Below are positions 1,897-13,367 of a stretch of 32,000 nt of DNA, one piece after another. The notes under the pieces were generated by a model. The model did not search any database and was not told the origin of the DNA. It saw nothing but the letters and a program-made list of their open reading frames with translations. Origin of the DNA: Pseudoalteromonas tetraodonis (GTDB lineage Bacteria > Pseudomonadota > Gammaproteobacteria > Enterobacterales > Alteromonadaceae); contig NZ_CP011041.1 in assembly GCF_002310835.1 (NCBI RefSeq), forward strand, positions 1,320,001-1,352,000, given 5' to 3'. Both the position numbers and the translations under genes were made by a program. Every line of letters begins with the position of its first letter. The first letter of the stretch is position 1.

Positions 1897-4800
1897 TTAG
1901 CTAGGTACCACAGGGCCATTGGCTAACTCTGAACGAAGTTGTGCTTCAACGTCTGTTAGCCAAGCTTTAAGATCGTCTTCTGATTCGATCATAGGCTTAT
2001 TTAAGCGGATATGTTTCACTTTTGGTGCTAGTTCGCTAATGGCATCTTTAAGGGCTCCATCAAAACGACCTGGCAGCGCCGAAATTCGGTCATTCCACTG
2101 CTCAAAACTTGTTGCTTCTATAGCGTCGTATACTGCGGCTGGTGAAGATAAGTTAATAGATGGGATTGAACTTAGACTACGCTTTTCTAGTAGTGCTTGT
2201 TTCTTAGCATCGTCTAATTTAGCCCAATTAGTATCGTCTATTAAGTCGCGATGACATGCATTGAACTCGTCTTCATATTCAGAGAGTTTTGCAGTGATGG
2301 CATCACGTAATGCCGATTCTGCTTGTTTTAGTAGTGGGCTAATAGGGTTAGGCTCAGCTAACAAACTACGATTGCTTTCAATGGAGTCCATTTGTTCAGT
2401 AATAGCACTATATATTGCTAAATCTTTGCATAAACGAGAAACTGTTTTCAGCTCATTCCACTGGTTAACTCGGTGTTTAGCTAGATCTGCTTGTTCTTGC
2501 CATTCTATAAATTGACTTTGGATTTCGTCTTTTGCTTCATAAGCTTGTTGTAACTGTTCGTTACCATCGTACATTTCTAAATTGGTAAGAATTGTGGTGC
2601 TGGGTGCTAATGGTAATGGTGCTTCACCACCAGCACTACGCGCAACGTTTTTAGCGTTGGTTATCGCCTGCGATAATTTACTTTGCTCTTCATTAGCGCC
2701 ACAATTTTGCCCTTCTGGTAATAACGCGTTTATTAAGCCACGTACTTTAATGATTTGTAATTTTGATAACGTTACATTTTCAGGGCGGAACTTAGTTTGA
2801 GTAACTGAAGATCTATCTAAACTTTTGGCATCAACAGGGCGTTCTTGTCCATCTTTTGCATTGAGCACGCCGGCAGCGACCATGGCAAATAGGGCGCCTT
2901 CAATGGTGTCTTTACCCCAGCCGTAAGGTGCATCTTTAAAGTTGTCGATAATTTCTTTACCTGTTTTTACTAAACCAATAAAGCGTTTAATTTCAGAGCA
3001 TACAGGGTGTTTATCTGCTTCATCATTATGGTCAATTGCCTCTAATGCATTAGGGTCACCTTGAGTGCTGGCGCGATTGTAAACTTTAGCCCAACCTTTG
3101 TTGTCAGCCATTTTAAATTTACTATATAGACGCTGACTTGCTAGTTTACCTGCATTTTGAATTTGCTCTGCTAGGTTTTCGCCTTCAACCTCTTGACCTC
3201 CAGCGAGTTTTACCTGAATTTGGCTAAAGATATCTTTTAGGATGGCCTTTTTTGCACGATCAGCTTCTTTGAATCGATACTCCATTGCAGCATAGGCTTC
3301 TTTACCTGCATCGGTTTTAGCGGTACCTCGTACATCTATCGTGGTTTCTGCAGCTTTTAGTTCGACAATCGCTTTACGTAATTCATCACGTTGAGATGTG
3401 GGTACGTATATGTAAATAGTTGCTGTATCAGGGTTTGCGCCTCGAGCAAGATCGTTAAATTGTTTTTCAGATACTTCTGGTGACCAAGCATATAACTTTT
3501 TATCTGCTTCAATCGGTAACTCTGAGCCAAACTCAACGTTTATTAATCTTGGTTCAGCAACATCTCCCTGTGTGATTCTGGCAGATAATACCTGTTTACG
3601 AACAAATTGTTGAATCTCCTGAGAGCGAAATACTTCTAAACGTTGTGGGTTGCTTTTTAATTCGCTTTCTTGCTGACGATACATATCGTACCATTGTTGG
3701 CTTTCTACTGTTTGCAGGCGGTACTCTTCCCCTGCATTTGTTTGCATTGGCATTACCAAACCATCGTCAACCAGCTGAGCTAATAGCTTGGGTACTTTAG
3801 CTCGTAGTTCGTGTTTGCCTTCAAGCAGGTTTTCAAGTAGTAAATCAGATAGGGTATCTGCTGTTGCAGCTATGCCGTATTCTATATCGTTAGGTAGTTT
3901 GCTTATAAGTAGTATAAGCGCAAGAATACGTGCTTGTAATCTTTGGTCACTATCACCCCCTTTTAAGCGACTGATGGTTTCGTAAATGTCTTTACCTATC
4001 GCACCACTATTTAGGAGTTTAGTGGCTATTTGATCGTATATATAGTCGGCAGGAACAACATAACCAAGAGGGCACTTTGCGGTTTCCTTTATTGCCTCGT
4101 GAACTACGCGTAGCTGGTTACGTAGCTGTGAGCCTGTGCCTGTTTTATCTAGTGCTGGTAGAACTCGCTCCCAAAAACGGCGACGCACTGGTAGTAACGG
4201 GTAATCTGCCACCATCCATTTTTCGTCATCTTTATTGTGCTCAATAATACTGCCACGTAAATGGCGTGAAATTTCACCTAATTCATTATCAATAATATTC
4301 TGGATTTTTGGGCGAACTGTTTCTTTCTTTTGAAGAATTACCTTACGGATAACTGAGTCTACGTCCGTATCCTCTAATTGAACGTTAACTTGAAAACGTC
4401 CCATTAACCTATGTAAGTTTTCTGTTCCTGATAGAGCACTTTGGCCTGTACCAATAAATAATAACTTGGAGTTTAAGCGGCCATCGTCACCACAGGTTTC
4501 AACTAATTCTTGAACGTCCATTGCCGTTTCAATACTGTCGCCGATATATTGTTGTACTTCATCAAGAACGACAAGTGTTAATGGCAACTCACCATCAATT
4601 GCAAGAGCATCCATAATCGCAGTAACCATTTCTTCGTTACTAATATCCGTCACGACTTGATACTGTGAACGTATCATATCTCTTACTTCTTTGGCATCAT
4701 TAGCGAAACCAGGGAGGGTGCTGAGCAAGGCATTACCAATAACAGGTGAAACATGAAGATTTTTTAACTCATACTCCCAAGCGTTTCGGCCTTCCTTTTG

Positions 4801-5376
4801 TTTAGAGTTTAGATTGATATAATCTTTTACCTCATCTAGTATACCTTCTGCTTTTAGCCACATAACAAATTTAGCTAAATGGTATTGCTCTGGTAATCCT
4901 GCAGATCTAAAAATAATACTTAAAAATGATAACCTAACTCTTTTACCCGCTCCAGCACCCAGTGTACCTGATGCTGCATGTAAACCATTATATTGAGCCC
5001 CAAGTTTAGAAAGCAGCTCAAATTCTTCTAAAATATCAGTAGGCAATTCAACTAAGCTACGGGCATAACTACCATCATTCAGTTTTTGATTAGTCCATAA
5101 AGCACGGATCATTTTAGCTAAATGTGATTTACCAGAGCCAAAAAAACCACTAATCCATACACCAGCCTGCTTTTTATTTTTTTCTACACTTGTGTTATAA
5201 GATCCAAGTATCTTTTTTAAGCCTATGGCATAAGCACCATCACACACGAATGTCCGTAATTCGTATTCTAGGATATCTAGTTCTAATTTAGAAAGGTCAT
5301 CCTTAACAGTTGCAACCCCTTCGTTTGCAAGACTACGTACTGTAGGGTCGTTTAAGTATACTTCACGATTTAACAT
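1897..5376 (-). CDS. brxC: BREX system P-loop ATPase BrxC/PglY
   Basis: 1159 aa. It has a Walker A motif GFFGSGKSHLAKM near residue 80 and a Walker B-like VVLDEVQQY. Its size and its position between brxB and pglX are typical of BrxC. Confidence 0.9.
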   Translation of the reverse strand: MLNREVYLNDPTVRSLANEGVATVKDDLSKLELDILEYELRTFVCDGAYAIGLKKILGSYNTSVEKNKKQAGVWISGFFGSGKSHLAKMIRALWTNQKLNDGSYARSLVELPTDILEEFELLSKLGAQYNGLHAASGTLGAGAGKRVRLSFLSIIFRSAGLPEQYHLAKFVMWLKAEGILDEVKDYINLNSKQKEGRNAWEYELKNLHVSPVIGNALLSTLPGFANDAKEVRDMIRSQYQVVTDISNEEMVTAIMDALAIDGELPLTLVVLDEVQQYIGDSIETAMDVQELVETCGDDGRLNSKLLFIGTGQSALSGTENLHRLMGRFQVNVQLEDTDVDSVIRKVILQKKETVRPKIQNIIDNELGEISRHLRGSIIEHNKDDEKWMVADYPLLPVRRRFWERVLPALDKTGTGSQLRNQLRVVHEAIKETAKCPLGYVVPADYIYDQIATKLLNSGAIGKDIYETISRLKGGDSDQRLQARILALILLISKLPNDIEYGIAATADTLSDLLLENLLEGKHELRAKVPKLLAQLVDDGLVMPMQTNAGEEYRLQTVESQQWYDMYRQQESELKSNPQRLEVFRSQEIQQFVRKQVLSARITQGDVAEPRLINVEFGSELPIEADKKLYAWSPEVSEKQFNDLARGANPDTATIYIYVPTSQRDELRKAIVELKAAETTIDVRGTAKTDAGKEAYAAMEYRFKEADRAKKAILKDIFSQIQVKLAGGQEVEGENLAEQIQNAGKLASQRLYSKFKMADNKGWAKVYNRASTQGDPNALEAIDHNDEADKHPVCSEIKRFIGLVKTGKEIIDNFKDAPYGWGKDTIEGALFAMVAAGVLNAKDGQERPVDAKSLDRSSVTQTKFRPENVTLSKLQIIKVRGLINALLPEGQNCGANEEQSKLSQAITNAKNVARSAGGEAPLPLAPSTTILTNLEMYDGNEQLQQAYEAKDEIQSQFIEWQEQADLAKHRVNQWNELKTVSRLCKDLAIYSAITEQMDSIESNRSLLAEPNPISPLLKQAESALRDAITAKLSEYEDEFNACHRDLIDDTNWAKLDDAKKQALLEKRSLSSIPSINLSSPAAVYDAIEATSFEQWNDRISALPGRFDGALKDAISELAPKVKHIRLNKPMIESEDDLKAWLTDVEAQLRSELANGPVVPS

Positions 5377-5386
5377 TCACTCATCC

Positions 5387-5932
5387 TTATGACATTGCTG
5401 TGATGGCTGTGGCGTGGTAACCCCACCCATCTCGGGCATCTAAAATTTTAAAATTATTATTTTGATATTCACCTGGGAAAAAGACGATTAGCCGACCTTT
5501 TACTTCTTTTGCTATTTGCTCTACCAAGCCTGATACAGACGTAAACCCAAACAAAGTTCCACAACCAAGTAGAGCTACTACTGTGTTTTCATTTTGTTTT
5601 TCAGTATATTCTGACTTTAATTTAATAATTAGCTCTTCAGTAAAGTCTTCGTACAATCCAACTAAGTATTCTGGATCTTCGAAATAGGTTTCTTTATAGT
5701 CTTGCTCTGCCATCCAGTTTTCAAAGCTGTTAGTAATATCGAGTTGCAGCCAAGGGTGCCCACTTTGTGTTGCACTGGCTTCAAACTCGTCAATTCGAGC
5801 TCTTAGCTTTAATTCGTCTTCTTTGTTGTAAACAACAAAGATAGTACGTTCATCAGGTGAAACTGCTTTAGGCCAGGGAATGCTTATATGGCTGTCAAAG
5901 CTTTGCAATAATTTTGATAATCGGTCTGACAT
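5387..5932 (-). CDS. brxB: BREX protein BrxB (DUF1788 family)
   Basis: 181 aa. Its start codon directly abuts the brxA stop codon (5933-5935). Size, position and N-terminal sequence (SIPWPKAVSPDERTIFVVYNKEDELKLRARI) fit BrxB as I remember the family. Confidence 0.8.
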   Translation of the reverse strand: MSDRLSKLLQSFDSHISIPWPKAVSPDERTIFVVYNKEDELKLRARIDEFEASATQSGHPWLQLDITNSFENWMAEQDYKETYFEDPEYLVGLYEDFTEELIIKLKSEYTEKQNENTVVALLGCGTLFGFTSVSGLVEQIAKEVKGRLIVFFPGEYQNNNFKILDARDGWGYHATAITAMS

Positions 5933-6712
5933 TTAACCTTGCTCCTCGGCATTTGGAAGTTCTATATTCGGAAAGGTAACTTCTATCACTTCACTAATCT
6001 GTTTAAAGTTTATTAAACCTCTTAGTGACGCTCTGTGAGCTAACTCAAATAAATGCTCTTTATCTTGCGATAACATTTTGCACCAAAAGCTGTCGAAAAG
6101 TCGTTGGCCAGATAAACCATGGCAATGGGCTAAAAATAATGCATATGCGATATTTACATAGGTCGCTTTAGGCTGAGAGCGGTATTTTTTAGTTTTACCT
6201 TCAAGATAATTTGCTTGAGTCCATGTGCCATTAATATTTTGTGCAAATGACTTAAGTGATGCAGCACTAAAACGTTCTGGGTCGTCTTTAGCTAAATGTT
6301 GCTCGACTGTTTCTCTTGGCAAGTGTTCGCCTAATTGTAGTGACAGTATTACGCTAGCTGAATTTCTTAAAATAGGATCTCTTGCTACCGCTAATTGCAG
6401 TGCTAACATTGGCTGAGCATCTTCTGATAGTTCCCACCACTGACGGAAAACATTAAATAAAGGAATATCCATAGACATGCCATATAGATCTACAAGATGT
6501 CTAAAGGTTAATGAACGTGATTTTTCGGTTGGCTTATGCAGTATATTAAAGTTGATGATATCGTCTTCATAATTTTTTTTTGTTGCGCTTTCATCACGAG
6601 CGAAAAGAAGCTCTTTGAGCTCTTCAATCATCATACTTCTAGCTGAGTGAGCGCCATTTTTGCCAAATTTGAAGCCTATTTGGCTTAGTGTGTTTTCTTC
6701 AACCATGTTCAT
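5933..6712 (-). CDS. brxA: BREX protein BrxA (DUF1819 family)
   Basis: 259 aa and first structural gene of the operon. Its start overlaps the brxR stop by 4 nt (ATGA at 6709-6712). The call rests on position and length; the family name is from operon context rather than a motif I can verify. Confidence 0.7.
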   Translation of the reverse strand: MNMVEENTLSQIGFKFGKNGAHSARSMMIEELKELLFARDESATKKNYEDDIINFNILHKPTEKSRSLTFRHLVDLYGMSMDIPLFNVFRQWWELSEDAQPMLALQLAVARDPILRNSASVILSLQLGEHLPRETVEQHLAKDDPERFSAASLKSFAQNINGTWTQANYLEGKTKKYRSQPKATYVNIAYALFLAHCHGLSGQRLFDSFWCKMLSQDKEHLFELAHRASLRGLINFKQISEVIEVTFPNIELPNAEEQG

Positions 6713-7584
6713 TCCTGATAGCCTGAGGCTATCTCAATATCTTTAAGATTAAGTTGTGATTTATTGCTTAAATGCAGCTGGTAAATATTGCAGTTTAATG
6801 TGCCGTGGTTAGAACAGTCTACGTTCCATTGCCTAAGTAAATAACCCAATAGAGCGGCTCTTATTTCTAATTTTAATTGCCCATTCTCCATCGCGTAATC
6901 AAGCTCTATAGCTTTTGGGTATTTTAGCTTTGGATGCGGGGTTAAAATTATATCGTAAATGGTGTGCCATTGGGTGTCTTTATCTGCGGATTCTTCAGGT
7001 TTTATGTTAGGTTGCTGTATTTTTGGGCATTCAATGCGGGTAGTTACAAAGTCTCTAAATTGTTGCTTGGTTCTATCAAAAGCGCGTACATGCCAGCGAG
7101 CACCATTATTTACAATAGAGTGGGGTACTAATACCTTTGAAGTAGTACCTGAAGTTAGTGACGTATATTGGCACTCTATAGTGAGCTTAGACGTAATAGC
7201 ACGCATAAGAGTCGCGATTACTTCACTATTTGGGTGTATTAAGCGCGTTGCATCTTGGCAGTAGCTACTTGGCTGAACGCCACTAGACAGGCCATCACCA
7301 AAACCACGGCATAAAGCGCTGAGAATACTCTCAGCATTATGTTCGAACAAAGGTTTAAAGCTTTCTAAGCGGTGGTAACTTTTGGTTGTATGGCTTAATA
7401 CTAGATTTTGCGGTGCAAGTTCTTTATATGATGAAAAGTCACGAGTGCACGCGGCTAAGCCAGTTTTAAAACGCTGAATTAAATCAGCTCTTGCGACTTG
7501 GCCAAAGTACTGCAGATTAAAATCTATGAACGCTAAGCGTTCCCTCTGCGCATGTGTGAGTGCATCCAATGCGGTATTAGTCAT
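6709..7584 (-). CDS. brxR: WYL-domain transcriptional regulator, BrxR-like
   Basis: 291 aa. The N-terminus has a wHTH-like segment (THAQRERLAFIDFNLQYFGQVARADLIQRF). The centre has a WYL-type motif (GARWHVRAFDRTKQQFRDFVTTRI). It lies immediately upstream of brxA and is translationally coupled to it. Confidence 0.75.
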   Translation of the reverse strand: MTNTALDALTHAQRERLAFIDFNLQYFGQVARADLIQRFKTGLAACTRDFSSYKELAPQNLVLSHTTKSYHRLESFKPLFEHNAESILSALCRGFGDGLSSGVQPSSYCQDATRLIHPNSEVIATLMRAITSKLTIECQYTSLTSGTTSKVLVPHSIVNNGARWHVRAFDRTKQQFRDFVTTRIECPKIQQPNIKPEESADKDTQWHTIYDIILTPHPKLKYPKAIELDYAMENGQLKLEIRAALLGYLLRQWNVDCSNHGTLNCNIYQLHLSNKSQLNLKDIEIASGYQE

Positions 7585-7612
7585 AAATATACTAAATCAT
7601 TATTTTGTAGTA

Positions 7613-7640
7613 ACTATATCAGGCAAATGAAAAGATGCAA
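7613..7640 (-). promoter_or_regulatory. Putative sigma70-type promoter for brxR and the BREX operon
   Basis: On the minus strand: TTGCAT (7640-7635), a 16-nt spacer, then TATAGT (7618-7613), about 30 nt upstream of the brxR ATG. Two direct GTTAAT repeats 11 bp apart (7650-7655 and 7661-7666 on the plus strand) lie just upstream of the -35 element. Confidence 0.3.
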
Positions 7641-7690
7641 TCAAAATGAGTTAATGCCCGGTTAATAATAGATATGCTTTTAACACGACT

Positions 7691-9088
7691 TTAAATTTCT
7701 AGGTCACTAATAACCTTCATTTCATTAATTATACTGCTCCTTAAGCTCAAGCAAACTGTTTCAGAGTAACCGTCTGGCATTATATCTCTACTCAAAACTG
7801 GTAGTTTATTCAATGATTTAAATTTTTTTATAAGCTTACTCTCGAATTGGTAGATTAAATTTCCGTCATCATGATAAATATAATTAATAAGTATATGCTT
7901 TAGTAAAGTTTGTTTAGATTGTTGCTGCATTCTTGCAACCGGCTCTCTATTTGTAATACCTAGCTTTAAAGCAATAAGTTTATTTTTGCTGTAAAGTTCT
8001 TGTAGGTAAAAGTAAGCAGGTTTAGAGCGGTTAAAGCCACTTTCAGCACAATGTGGGCAAGCTGTTCCAGAAAAAATACAGTCAGGGTTAGTTTCCCATG
8101 TAAACGCTTCATCTTTTAAACACTGTAATAATATTCTACTTTTTACACCTCTTTCGAAGTTAGTAACAGGGCCAAGAAGCTTGAACTTGTCTTTCCCTAT
8201 CTCATTAATGCGATCAATTATTTCATCTATAGTGTAAACATATGAATTTGTGCATTTAGGGCATTGGCCACCTCTAAGTATGTTGTTTACAGATGGCGTC
8301 CAAGGGTTTCTAAATAAATGCCCATAACCATGAGTAGGGCACAATAGAACTACTTTTGTATGTTTAGACTTTTTCTTATCGTCAAATAGTAGCACTTTAT
8401 AATTTGTCTTTTTTTCTATTTGACTCTTATATTCATCTAGCGAAAAATTATACAAATTAGCGCATTTAGGGCAGCCATTCCCTCTGGTAATATCTTCGAA
8501 TCGGGGAACCCAAGGTGTTGCAAATTCATCACTTGGTCCGTGCTCTGCGCAACTGACAGCTATTCTGGTGTTTTTACCTTTGAAATCGGACTTTAAGCGA
8601 ATAAATTTGTATTTTGTATCGTTAACTAATTCTATCCACTCATCAATGGTTCGCTTATAAGTGCCCTTACATTTTGGACAGCCTCTATTGCGAATGATAT
8701 TAACTGCAGTGGGTTCCCATTTATTTGCATAAAGTTGACCTTCACCATGAATTTTACAAATTAGATTGAGCTTAGTTGAAGAGCCTTTAAATTCTCCAAT
8801 GAAGTTTTTAAACTTGAATCCTTTATCTTCGATAAGCTTTATCCATTCATCAGATGTATATATGTACTTGCCAGCACATTTTGGGCAGCCATAGCCATTT
8901 ATTATAGAAGAGGCAAGCGGTACCCATCTATTGCCAAACTTTGAGCCATCGCCATGCGTCGGGCATTTTAAAATAACTCGGTCATTTGATATTAATCTAT
9001 CGCTCATATAGTCTATAAGCTCAAATCTATCTTCAATTGCTTTGGTAAGTTGTCTATATTTTTCAACTCGTTTATCAGTTTTATTCAT
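7691..9088 (-). CDS. Protein with five tandem zinc-ribbon (CxxH-N22-CxxC) modules and a C-terminal GIY-YIG/T5orf172-like putative nuclease domain
   Basis: 465 aa. The metal-ligand pattern repeats every 69-70 aa: C42/H45/C68/C71, C111/H114/C137/C140, C180/H183/C206/C209 and C250/H253/C276/C279. A fifth copy is degenerate (C323...C344/C347). Each module carries a conserved W-x-P and G-CPKC. The tail KPAYFYLQELY...ALKLGITNREPVARMQQQ resembles the GIY...YIG...R core. The gene is visibly AT-rich compared with the BREX genes. Confidence 0.6.
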   Translation of the reverse strand: MNKTDKRVEKYRQLTKAIEDRFELIDYMSDRLISNDRVILKCPTHGDGSKFGNRWVPLASSIINGYGCPKCAGKYIYTSDEWIKLIEDKGFKFKNFIGEFKGSSTKLNLICKIHGEGQLYANKWEPTAVNIIRNRGCPKCKGTYKRTIDEWIELVNDTKYKFIRLKSDFKGKNTRIAVSCAEHGPSDEFATPWVPRFEDITRGNGCPKCANLYNFSLDEYKSQIEKKTNYKVLLFDDKKKSKHTKVVLLCPTHGYGHLFRNPWTPSVNNILRGGQCPKCTNSYVYTIDEIIDRINEIGKDKFKLLGPVTNFERGVKSRILLQCLKDEAFTWETNPDCIFSGTACPHCAESGFNRSKPAYFYLQELYSKNKLIALKLGITNREPVARMQQQSKQTLLKHILINYIYHDDGNLIYQFESKLIKKFKSLNKLPVLSRDIMPDGYSETVCLSLRSSIINEMKVISDLEI

Positions 9089-9161
9089 TATGTTCAGCCA
9101 TATAAGTCCTTTTAATAAGGCTAACTTACTGCTAAATCATGATTAAATCTACATTTGTTAG

Positions 9162-9347
9162 TTAAATTTCATCTCTTTTTCCAATCTTTTCACTTATCCA
9201 TTCTTCAACTTCACTTTCTACCCAGGCTACAGAGTTGCCACCTAGCTCGACCTTCATTGGAAATCCACCAGCGCTCATAAAGCGATAAACAGTTGAACGG
9301 CTTAAGCCTGTAATATGTAAAACTTCTTTTAATTTGATTAAACGCAT
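9162..9347 (-). CDS. alpA: AlpA-family phage/island transcriptional regulator (MerR-like HTH)
   Basis: 61 aa: MRLIKLKEVLHITGLSRSTVYRFMSAGGFPMKVELGGNSVAWVESEVEEWI. This is the classic AlpA/prophage CP4-57 regulatory protein signature. Confidence 0.85.
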   Translation of the reverse strand: MRLIKLKEVLHITGLSRSTVYRFMSAGGFPMKVELGGNSVAWVESEVEEWISEKIGKRDEI

Positions 9348-9958: not shown

Positions 9959-10378
9959 ATGGCGATTAAAATAGAGCAAGTGCCAGGACTAAACGTGCCA
10001 GAGTCACTGTTTGATGTGATTGTAAATGCCATCACTAAACAAGGTGAATCGATAGGGAATGCGAGTAAGTTAACTTTGAATTTCCGTGATAAAGATTATA
10101 GCGCAGCAGCTGGGGGCTTTCACCCAGTCGAGGTTAGGCTAGAAAAACGCGGTATTGGTTGGGAGCTTGTATACATTACTGACTTTTCATACCAGGGCCG
10201 ACCGGATTTTGAGTTAGTAAAGGAGATTGATGTTTGCTTTGAAATTAAACGCGTGTATCACATGCTGGTGGGCTGGTTAAGTGAACGAGAGGGCAAGGAG
10301 CTTTTAACTTTATTTGTGACTAACTTTGTTGAATATTACAACACAGGCTGCTACCAAGTCATTATTTCAACAGAATAA
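9959..10378 (+). CDS. Hypothetical protein, DUF2787-like
   Basis: 139 aa, starting 12 nt after radC. The GGFHPVEVRLEK motif matches my recollection of DUF2787 proteins, which accompany RadC in Vibrio and Shewanella islands. The family name is from memory only. Confidence 0.5.
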   Translation: MAIKIEQVPGLNVPESLFDVIVNAITKQGESIGNASKLTLNFRDKDYSAAAGGFHPVEVRLEKRGIGWELVYITDFSYQGRPDFELVKEIDVCFEIKRVYHMLVGWLSEREGKELLTLFVTNFVEYYNTGCYQVIISTE

Positions 10379-10388
10379 GGAGTTGGCT

Positions 10389-10949
10389 ATGGCTGAAGTA
10401 CAGGCGATTAAGGACCTTGATACAGTAAAGTTAATCAGTTACTTGCTTGAAAAGCGGTGTTCTAAACAGATGAGCCATATTTGGAATATAGGTCTGAACT
10501 TGGCATTGCGCATATCTGATTTGTTGTCTGTTAAATTTACGGACATTCAAAATGACAGGTTACTTATATTTGAAAGTAAAACAGGCAAGCTTGCAGAGAT
10601 TAAGTTAAATCAAAAAGCATTAGCGTTTATCCATGAAGTACGAATCACTCACCCCAACCATGTTTACTTATTTCAATCGTATCGTAATCAACAGGCTAAA
10701 GGTTCACCACCACGGCCTTTATCTCGAAGGGCTGTAACAAGAGCATTTGCGTTAGTGGGTGAAGAGCTTAATTTAAAACTAGGCACTCACTCGATGCGGA
10801 AAACCCGAGGTTACCACCTCTACCATAAAACCCAAGACATCGCGCGTGTAATGAAGATGCTTCGCCATAGCTCGGAAGCAACAACACTGCGTTACATTGG
10901 CATAACCCAGGAGGAAATCGATAAAGACTTTGAAGAGTTAGAGCTATAA
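10389..10949 (+). CDS. Short tyrosine recombinase, catalytic domain only (phage-integrase family, FimB/FimE-sized)
   Basis: 186 aa from the ATG at 10389, which is preceded by AAGGAG (10377-10382). I prefer this start over the track start at 10326, which overlaps the upstream gene. A full catalytic set is recognisable: R in LALRISDLL, K in ESKTGK, HxxR in HSMRKTRG, H in LRHSS, and Y in TLRYIG. There is no N-terminal core-binding domain. Confidence 0.75.
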   Translation: MAEVQAIKDLDTVKLISYLLEKRCSKQMSHIWNIGLNLALRISDLLSVKFTDIQNDRLLIFESKTGKLAEIKLNQKALAFIHEVRITHPNHVYLFQSYRNQQAKGSPPRPLSRRAVTRAFALVGEELNLKLGTHSMRKTRGYHLYHKTQDIARVMKMLRHSSEATTLRYIGITQEEIDKDFEELEL

Positions 10950-11992: not shown

Positions 11993-12042
11993 TGAATCGC
12001 CCCGTGTTTGCCAGAGACTCAATAACTTGAGAAACTGGAACT

Positions 12043-13328
<1,286 letters not shown>

Positions 13329-13367
13329 CTTAAACAAACTGGTCTCCGATGAACTCGGGGCGATTCA

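Follow-up and report, generated by a model that had tools for sequence, protein, structure and literature searches.

A zinc-finger-array gene with a T5orf172-like C-terminal domain in an exchangeable alpA–brxR slot of a Pseudoalteromonas tetraodonis defence island

The locus described here raises the question of what a 465-residue protein, annotated in the databases as a 'hypothetical protein' of Pseudoalteromonas tetraodonis (WP_096038342.1), contributes to the chromosomal defence island that encodes it. The gene lies between alpA and the regulator gene brxR of a bacteriophage exclusion (BREX) system, in a stretch of 32,000 nucleotides of contig NZ_CP011041.1 (positions 1,320,001 to 1,352,000) which is hereafter called the window; the island was recognised as such by PADLOC searches of the neighbouring genes. 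A first-pass annotation made from the letters alone had taken the product to be an orphan of unassignable architecture, and had offered three options, namely a stand-alone anti-phage nuclease, a BREX accessory factor or a free-standing homing-endonuclease-like selfish gene. As argued below, the protein is very probably a site-specific DNA endonuclease with the build of the free-standing homing endonucleases of the T5orf172 family in phages, and we put the chances at about even that an endonuclease of this type has been co-opted as a stand-alone effector in conflicts with phages and other mobile genetic elements (MGEs).

The open reading frame (ORF) of the earlier annotation was reproduced, coding for 465 aa on the minus strand and with an ATG start. 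It is separated by exactly the 73 nt claimed from alpA and by 106 nt (earlier given as about 100 nt) from the WYL/BrxR gene, which is followed by brxA, brxB and brxC, and these BREX genes bear out the defence-island position as well. The gene is also AT-rich as had been noted, if modestly so, with a G + C content of 34.6% as compared to 38.1% in the island and 40.0% in the core. Its parts are as follows.

7691..9088, minus strand: putative zinc-finger-array / T5orf172-like nuclease gene, 465-aa ATG ORF, WP_096038342.1
8840..9049, minus strand: zinc module R1, aa 14–83, ligands C42/H45/C68/C71
8633..8842, minus strand: zinc module R2, aa 83–152, ligands C111/H114/C137/C140, with the best CapR stretch at 87–141
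8426..8635, minus strand: zinc module R3, aa 152–221, ligands C180/H183/C206/C209
8216..8425, minus strand: zinc module R4, aa 222–291, ligands C250/H253/C276/C279, with DUF4379 at 237–281
8039..8215, minus strand: degenerate fifth zinc module R5, aa 292–350, retaining C323, C344 and C347 (z 3–6)
7694..8038, minus strand: C-terminal T5orf172/MUG113-like putative nuclease domain, aa 351–465, supported by phrog_681, the AlphaFold2 model and conserved residues

With respect to the array, a regular-expression scan found four C-x2-H...(22 aa)...C-P-K-C units at a spacing of 69–70 aa and matched every ligand position listed before, from C42 to C279, together with the degenerate fifth copy, in which C323 and C344-x2-C347 are kept while the C-x2-H knuckle is gone; the knuckle is present in some relatives. 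Pairwise, R1 to R4 share 23–29 of 70 residues (alignment z = 15–17 against shuffles), and R5 reaches z = 3–6 with the other modules. At the DNA level only the 17-mers coding for G-C-P-K-C recur, at a spacing of 207–210 nt, and Tandem Repeats Finder reported zero tandem repeats in the gene, so that the array is ancient and a recent tandem duplication of the modules is ruled out. In Pfam the modules match the CapR homology domain (1.3e-17, in three stretches), DUF4379 (5.1e-15), described there as a 'probable treble clef zinc finger', and DUF723 (1.6e-5), all above the curated cutoffs, which supports the prediction, made already in the first-pass annotation, that they are nucleic-acid-binding zinc-finger units. 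For the CapR domain it was shown that DNA binding depends on the four cysteines, and that the T5orf172 homing endonucleases of phage ICP1 are the source of CapR (PMC8096241).

An array of such CapR/DUF723/DUF4379 fingers placed N-terminal to a nuclease-like domain, as present in the 465-aa protein, is by no means unassignable. Fingers of these families were reported in 200 of 229 phage T5orf172 homing endonuclease genes (HEGs), often in tandem as 'beads on a string', with as many as six repeats in the T5orf172 HEG of Vibrio phage Helene (PMC10448857). Nor is the protein an orphan: the phage family phrog_681, named 'endonuclease', matches over the full length at 1.9e-75, a large protein collection holds 532 homologues at E<1e-5, and tblastn matches occur in 476 phage records of INPHARED, 79 of which cover at least 80% of the protein; NCBIfam returned only noise. 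In phage RB49 the homologous gene, labelled 'endonuclease', stands on its own between gene 32 and frd. Repeated CapR-type fingers followed by T5orf172 are a published architecture (PMC10448857), of which the gene in the window is an island-borne example, and of the three options offered at first the homing-endonuclease-like one had named the correct family. Many homologues (e.g., P0018, P0028 and P0034–P0037) carry finger arrays fused to PD-(D/E)xK/Vsr-like C-termini with motifs such as 'D...E.QG.QH' and 'EFHGDFWHG' in place of the T5orf172-like tail, and nuclease modules have therefore been swapped on a common DNA-binding scaffold.

The C-terminal domain contains the motifs YFY...KLGIT...R pointed out in the first-pass annotation, and these are conserved across relatives. 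Taken alone, the last 114 residues are matched by phrog_681 at 3e-19 (profile positions 436–534). While the protein's own tail has zero Pfam matches at 0.01, T5orf172 (PF10544) and MUG113 (PF13455) are seen in its relatives: among 29 diverse tails MUG113 was found in 10 (best 9.5e-10) and T5orf172 in 9 (best 4.2e-8), and a 50%-identical Shewanella copy lies above the Pfam T5orf172 cutoff (22.1 bits vs 20). An exhaustive phmmer search with the tail only against 1.84 billion representatives returned 227 clusters, with the domain at the C-terminus in all of them; in the best 120 of these clusters CapR is found in 80, DUF4379 in 40 and DUF723 in 22, and the C-terminal families are MUG113 (23) and T5orf172 (10), with no other catalytic family. 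The tail is modelled confidently by AlphaFold2 (predicted local distance difference test score 93.5) with the topology b-b-a-b-a-a, which is compatible with a GIY-YIG fold, and a structure search of BFVD with this model finds 75 phage proteins at E<=1e-3 whose C-termini superpose on it (template modelling (TM) score 0.7–0.87), with names such as 'CapR homology domain-containing', 'Homing endonuclease' and 'GIY-YIG domain-containing'. The conserved residues of the tail are Y361, K375, G377-I-T-N380, R386, E416, D439-G440 and E443, and in the diverse set Y361, G377, R386, G440 and E443 are invariant, with K375 and E416 near-invariant. That the tail belongs with T5orf172/MUG113-type domains is thus supported at the family level.

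In turn, the close relatives of the protein differ from the wide family in where they reside. The close subfamily (46–99% identity, 463–486 aa, sharing the five modules and the tail) is absent from the phage and viral collections INPHARED and IMG/VR: none of the 476 phage records reaches 60% identity, 25–30% being typical, and the 287 relatives in IMG/VR do not exceed 33%. All relatives at 46–99% are on chromosomal or island contigs, and more distant ones, at about 30% identity, occur in virus-like contigs; among 185,579 species-representative genomes there are 2 close copies only, and a plasmid reservoir of the gene is not apparent, with only 12 weak, partial matches. The first-pass annotation had held a defence role to be incompatible with homologues found mainly as homing endonucleases of phages and not enriched in defence islands. 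The wide family is viral and HEG-like, whereas the close subfamily has branched off into cellular islands, where it is found beside defence genes. The neighbourhoods of its members in other genomes and contigs (numbered with the prefix L) are listed here.

L001, 84% identity: alpA–gene–brxR–BREX synteny as in the window
L002, 58% identity: beside DISARM DrmD (2.8e-268) and a BrxE-type BREX
L004, 48% identity: adjoins PDC-S39 (1.6e-118)
L010, 46% identity: integrase/AlpA island with a type VI retron reverse transcriptase (RT_VI, 9.8e-75)
L009, 47% identity: ABC-3C-type MC6/CTD10 genes close by
L005 (Pseudidiomarina sp. CB1), 49% identity: two large tyrosine recombinases upstream
L006 (Shewanella phaeophyticola), 50% identity: gene split by IS3, adjoining a group II intron

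Several details of these loci may be recorded. In L005 (11891–13492) the homologue is followed by a 533-aa double-HNH_3 protein (PADLOC 'HEase', 4.6e-13) and an Xre/ParS-type antitoxin, which makes up a small homing-endonuclease-like gene cluster on a cellular island, and in L006 (8412–11065) the homologue is disrupted by an IS3 transposase gene and has a group II intron reverse transcriptase beside it. A 67–68-aa protein without Pfam match precedes the homologue in L009 (1441–1647) and L010 (489–692), is 76% identical between the two loci and is absent from the window and the other loci. A conserved small partner upstream of the gene was considered and rejected, as the 61–68-aa genes upstream of different homologues are unrelated except for this one pair.

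By comparing the window with L001, the ratio of non-synonymous to synonymous substitution rates (dN/dS) of the nuclease gene is 0.12 at a dS of 0.71, with 0.122 for the array and 0.117 for the tail, and its neighbours have similar values (brxR 0.16 at dS 0.70; DUF2787 0.11 at dS 0.82). This indicates that the gene has long co-diverged with the island under purifying selection and, because so low a ratio persists at this divergence, that its function has been maintained; such long purifying co-divergence is unlike the degeneration phase of a fixed homing gene.

Sister islands were found by lookup of the window's exact AlpA, which recovered several Pseudoalteromonas genomes as well as metagenomes, and they show that the gene is present in some islands with an identical AlpA and replaced in others. 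The alpA–brxR slot holds the 465-aa gene in L023, L025 and L031, and in L024, L026–L030 and L032 it holds an unrelated pair of genes coding for a 216-aa and a 93–105-aa lysine-rich protein. The former is named 'HEPN domain-containing' by NCBI and has an R-N-Q-L-I-H motif, with Pfam HEPN_Apea only at E=0.031, and the latter has zero Pfam or PADLOC match; HEPN proteins are a recognised class of BREX-adjacent auxiliary effectors (PMC12839542). In L024 this two-gene cassette spans 8259–9199 and possibly represents an uncharacterised effector. An alignment of the two allele types shows that homology spans alpA and the 73-nt spacer (positions 1–259, 95.8% identity), ends at the start codon and returns 36 nt after the stop codon (position 1693, the stop ending at 1657), within the 71 nt upstream of brxR. 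No empty alpA–brxR slot was seen in about 17 places examined. The nuclease gene is thus one of the two alternatives that occupy this small exchangeable slot, whose elements in the window are given below.

9162..9347, minus strand: alpA, 61-aa product, the identical protein marking the sister islands
9089..9161, minus strand: 73-nt alpA-to-gene spacer, the left flank kept in both allele types
7656..7690, minus strand: 35 nt 3′ of the stop codon, part of the swapped cassette, without homology to the HEPN-cassette alleles
7585..7655, minus strand: 71-nt conserved region upstream of brxR, the right flank of the cassette slot by allele alignment
6709..7584, minus strand: brxR, coding for a WYL regulator, with the cargo-exchange breakpoint at its 3′ end

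Identity matrices further show that backbone, slot, brxR and the cargo behind it assort separately, and they place a further breakpoint at the 3′ end of brxR. Between the window and L001, the backbone proteins including the nuclease are 78–99% identical, as opposed to only 21–24% for brxA, brxB and brxC; the cargo-exchange breakpoint lies at about 6811 of the window (cargo 1897–6712), and the L001 cargo extends from 8914 onward. In other sister islands, SNF2 together with either an N6_N4-methylase or DUF4391 is found behind the same brxR. Every exact copy of the window's BrxR has the 465-aa gene upstream, and co-conversion of brxR with the nuclease gene was not seen. The distribution of the two cassettes over the cargo types is as follows.

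Window-type BREX: nuclease gene in L023; HEPN-like cassette in L026 and L028
BrxE-type BREX: nuclease gene in L025; HEPN-like cassette in L030
SNF2 + methylase or SNF2 + DUF4391: nuclease gene none seen; HEPN-like cassette in L024, L027, L029 and L032

Some further traits of the islands were noted in passing. An IS3-family element (window 11994–13364; orfA 12043–12429, orfB 12432–13328) lies within yfjJ, about 77 nt in from its 5′ end, and the metagenome contig L013, otherwise 99.99% identical, is without it and has a yfjJ of 218 aa as compared to 203. Between DUF2787 and a 79-aa ORF there is a short tyrosine-recombinase-like gene (window 10326–10949) with the Phage_integrase catalytic domain only, which has 186 aa in sister contigs and is too short for a complete integrase. 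Behind an identical BrxR on the metagenome contig L134 (1486–2266), brxA is split into ORFs of 48 and 220 aa, likely by a frameshift or an assembly error. In a promoter and terminator scan around the slot no terminator-like site was found between the nuclease gene and brxR, and promoter-like sites were fewer than in shuffled sequence, which is uninformative.

The anatomy of the protein, its family relationships, the polymorphism of the cassette, the purifying selection and the neighbouring defence genes are thus observed, and from this material we infer cleavage of DNA, the length of the target and a role against phages along the following lines. The five CapR-type modules, four with an intact Cys-His-Cys-Cys set and one degenerate, would act as a 'beads-on-a-string' reader of an extended DNA site, and the T5orf172/MUG113-like C-terminal domain, with Y361, K375-x-G-I-T-N, R386, E416 and D-G-x-S/T-E443, would cut near the site so recognised. 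As a cellular offshoot of a phage family, kept functional in the recombination-prone alpA–brxR slot of an integrative defence island, the enzyme might serve as a stand-alone effector that cuts a specific sequence in the DNA of an invading phage or a rival mobile element, and self-DNA would be spared simply by the absence of the long target site. Such co-option is favoured because defence genes recur in the neighbourhoods of independent loci, because a HEPN-like cassette can take the place of the gene, and because of the absence from viral collections and the purifying selection. The more elaborate proposal that islands have domesticated a homing-endonuclease-type enzyme as a one-gene, sequence-programmed nuclease against phages and MGEs, carried in a plug-in auxiliary-effector slot upstream of brxR, interchangeable with a HEPN RNase-like cassette, independent of the BREX, DISARM-like or other system downstream and tuned in its specificity by finger shuffling, is advanced only tentatively, at somewhat less than even odds in our judgement.

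Known systems offer both likenesses and differences. The phage T5orf172 HEGs (ICP1 gp165/gp174, those of Vibrio phages Helene and 184E37, RB49p240) have the same order of parts, an array of fingers of about 70 aa followed by the C-terminal domain, and are likewise free-standing between genes and near a boundary of genetic exchange. However, they are encoded by phages and not in a chromosomal island, phage and viral copies are only 25–33% identical to the island protein, and the first zinc knuckle is C-x2-H in the latter as opposed to the C-x2-C described for CapR. Unlike these HEGs, the island gene co-diverges with its island under purifying selection, and it alternates with a HEPN-like cassette and not with an empty site. 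In canonical GIY-YIG homing endonucleases such as I-TevI there is a similar modularity of a catalytic domain and a zinc-finger-containing DNA-binding region, but in I-TevI the catalytic domain is N-terminal, the reverse of the order found here, and there is zero significant sequence, profile or structure match between these enzymes and the tail. A T5orf172 nuclease with a borrowed DNA-binding domain, Odn of phage ICP1, is reported to destroy the Vibrio cholerae phage satellite PLE. It would illustrate the use of a T5orf172-type nuclease as a sequence-specific weapon between mobile elements and hence the role proposed here, although Odn is phage-encoded and has a RepA_N domain where the island protein uses zinc fingers, and the direction of conflict is the opposite one, as the P. 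tetraodonis gene would set an island against an invader. CapR of PLE belongs to the same finger domain family, Pfam PF21817 being named after it, and is, like the island gene, housed in a chromosomal mobile island, in its case one that antagonises phages; it is a domesticated HEG DNA-binding domain that represses the capsid operon (PMC8096241). By analogy, Odn and CapR may be taken as precedents for the use of T5orf172 and CapR parts as weapons between mobile elements.

Several observations weigh against a co-opted endonuclease, and the first of these concern the tail. Pfam reports MUG113 only, at E=0.097 and with 13.7 bits against a cutoff of 22.3. Foldseek with the tail model finds none at E<=1e-3 in the PDB (best E 0.78; UvrC, 1ycz, at rank 34 with E=2.9 and TM 0.22/0.27), the tail profile has zero matches among PDB sequences, and hhalign of the tail family with an I-TevI-type profile (11 members, the I-TevI sequence being checked against 1MK0/1LN0) gives a probability of 0.5% and E=0.12 over 14 columns (YIG...Arg), the sole paired segment being K-L-G-I-T...R386 with Y-V-G-S...R27. 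For the full-length protein, the only match of its profile among PDB chains is the zinc ribbon of aRF1 to a finger module (E=0.0013), and Foldseek with its model finds nothing significant in the PDB, so that no solved structure is alike. The GIY-YIG/T5orf172 assignment of the first-pass annotation therefore stands at the family level for T5orf172/MUG113, whereas a link to canonical GIY-YIG enzymes is not demonstrated, the structure, profile and profile–profile comparisons all being negative; the structure prediction that it had called for yields a confident tail model but no significant GIY-YIG match. The Pfam clan also places T5orf172 in the GIY-YIG superfamily. The GIY-YIG fold of the tail rests on this assignment and on the same placement in the literature (PMC8096241) and not on computed comparisons, and Y361, K375, G377, R386, E416 and E443 may be equivalent to Y6, Y17-G19, R27 and E75 of I-TevI. 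Since the direct comparisons with GIY-YIG are all negative, catalysis is predicted from the naming of the family and the conserved residues. With respect to the defence role, PADLOC, which finds defence genes at the locus, finds none in the protein itself (0 families of PADLOC-DB v2 at E<=0.01), and the evidence from defence neighbourhoods amounts to about seven loci without a background rate. Islands also gather selfish genes, as seen from the copy beside the HNH homing-endonuclease-like gene in L005 and the IS-split copy in L006, and ORF-exact cassette exchange is also expected of a homing gene. Protection by way of a very long recognition site would be narrow, and this is uncommon among defence genes; both the nuclease function and the defence role of the subfamily are predictions from sequence and context.

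The main rival explanation, which we consider unlikely though the strongest of the alternatives, is that the gene is an active selfish free-standing HEG which cuts the HEPN-cassette allele or the alpA–brxR junction when island variants meet and is copied in by repair, its location in a defence island being incidental. This would fit its membership in a phage HEG family with a free-standing homologue between gene 32 and frd of RB49, the ORF-exact cassette polymorphism with conserved flanks, the sporadic occurrence in the species genomes, and the copies accompanied by an HNH gene (L005) or disrupted by an IS element (L006). It would also fit the position about 1 kb from the cargo-exchange breakpoint at the 3′ end of brxR, echoing the statement that 'nuclease genes occupy boundaries of genetic exchange' (PMC10448857). 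However, the long syntenic retention, at a dS of 0.71 and with a dN/dS like that of the neighbours, is unexpected for a fixed chromosomal HEG with rare chances of homing, and empty-site alleles are lacking in all the places examined. In addition, brxR alleles do not co-segregate with the gene, hence there is no co-conversion tract, and the members at 46–58% identity reside in unrelated, highly variable loci and not beside a conserved target gene.

That the protein is a domesticated, nuclease-inactive DNA-binding regulator after the manner of PLE CapR, with the array repressing phage or island promoters, is judged to be quite improbable. The founder of the finger domain works in exactly this way, as a repressor that has been domesticated in a phage satellite (PMC8096241), and satellite-like genes are found in the island, too (alpA, an integrase fragment, yfjJ and a gene for an HTH_36 protein). 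However, in contrast to CapR, which is without a nuclease domain, the island protein joins its five modules to a conserved 115-aa catalytic-type C-terminal domain retained as a whole, in which the family shows no variation at Y/K-G-I-T/R/E/G-x-S/T-E and the dN/dS is as low as in the array. The conserved tail thus disfavours a nuclease-dead regulator, just as the assortment data disfavour a role in BREX.

A dedicated BREX accessory or partner of BrxR, e.g., one supplying the missing nuclease of BREX or tuning brxR expression, is the least probable reading of all: the gene is directly upstream of brxR on the same strand without a terminator-like site between them, a second homologue (L002) is also near a BREX operon, and auxiliary nucleases flanking BREX are reported in a 2026 survey (PMC12839542), but in islands with an identical AlpA the HEPN-like cassette takes its place before the same BREX types, two unrelated types of BREX accompany the nuclease gene, brxR of sister islands fronts SNF2/methylase systems instead of BREX, other members of the subfamily are without BREX nearby, and the PADLOC BREX models do not match the protein. 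Because the content of the slot is independent of the cargo behind brxR, the HEPN-like cassette pairing with BREX or non-BREX systems alike, the gene is not a BREX-specific accessory, contrary to the second option of the first-pass annotation.

While the kind of protein was already known, the cellular island subfamily and the alpA–brxR effector slot are new here, neither having been found in the papers on T5orf172 that were searched. The notion of an unassignable architecture falls away, and what remains is a testable hypothesis of homing endonuclease domestication into bacterial immunity. If the gene were only a selfish homing gene, it would be unremarkable within a family already described, apart from its unusual chromosomal host. 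If invader DNA is indeed cut, a GIY-YIG/T5orf172-type member would be added to the auxiliary nucleases adjacent to BREX, a class from which GIY-YIG is absent in the 2026 survey (PMC12839542). The protein would then be the cellular equivalent of what T5orf172 nucleases (Odn) and CapR fingers do in the conflict of phages with satellites, and homing endonuclease scaffolds would be seen to move from phages into host immunity; its five-finger modular reader could also be a natural re-programmable scaffold for the recognition of long DNA sites. Whatever the function, a sharply delimited effector mini-slot ahead of brxR and a further point of exchange at that gene's 3′ end bear on how defence islands are assembled.

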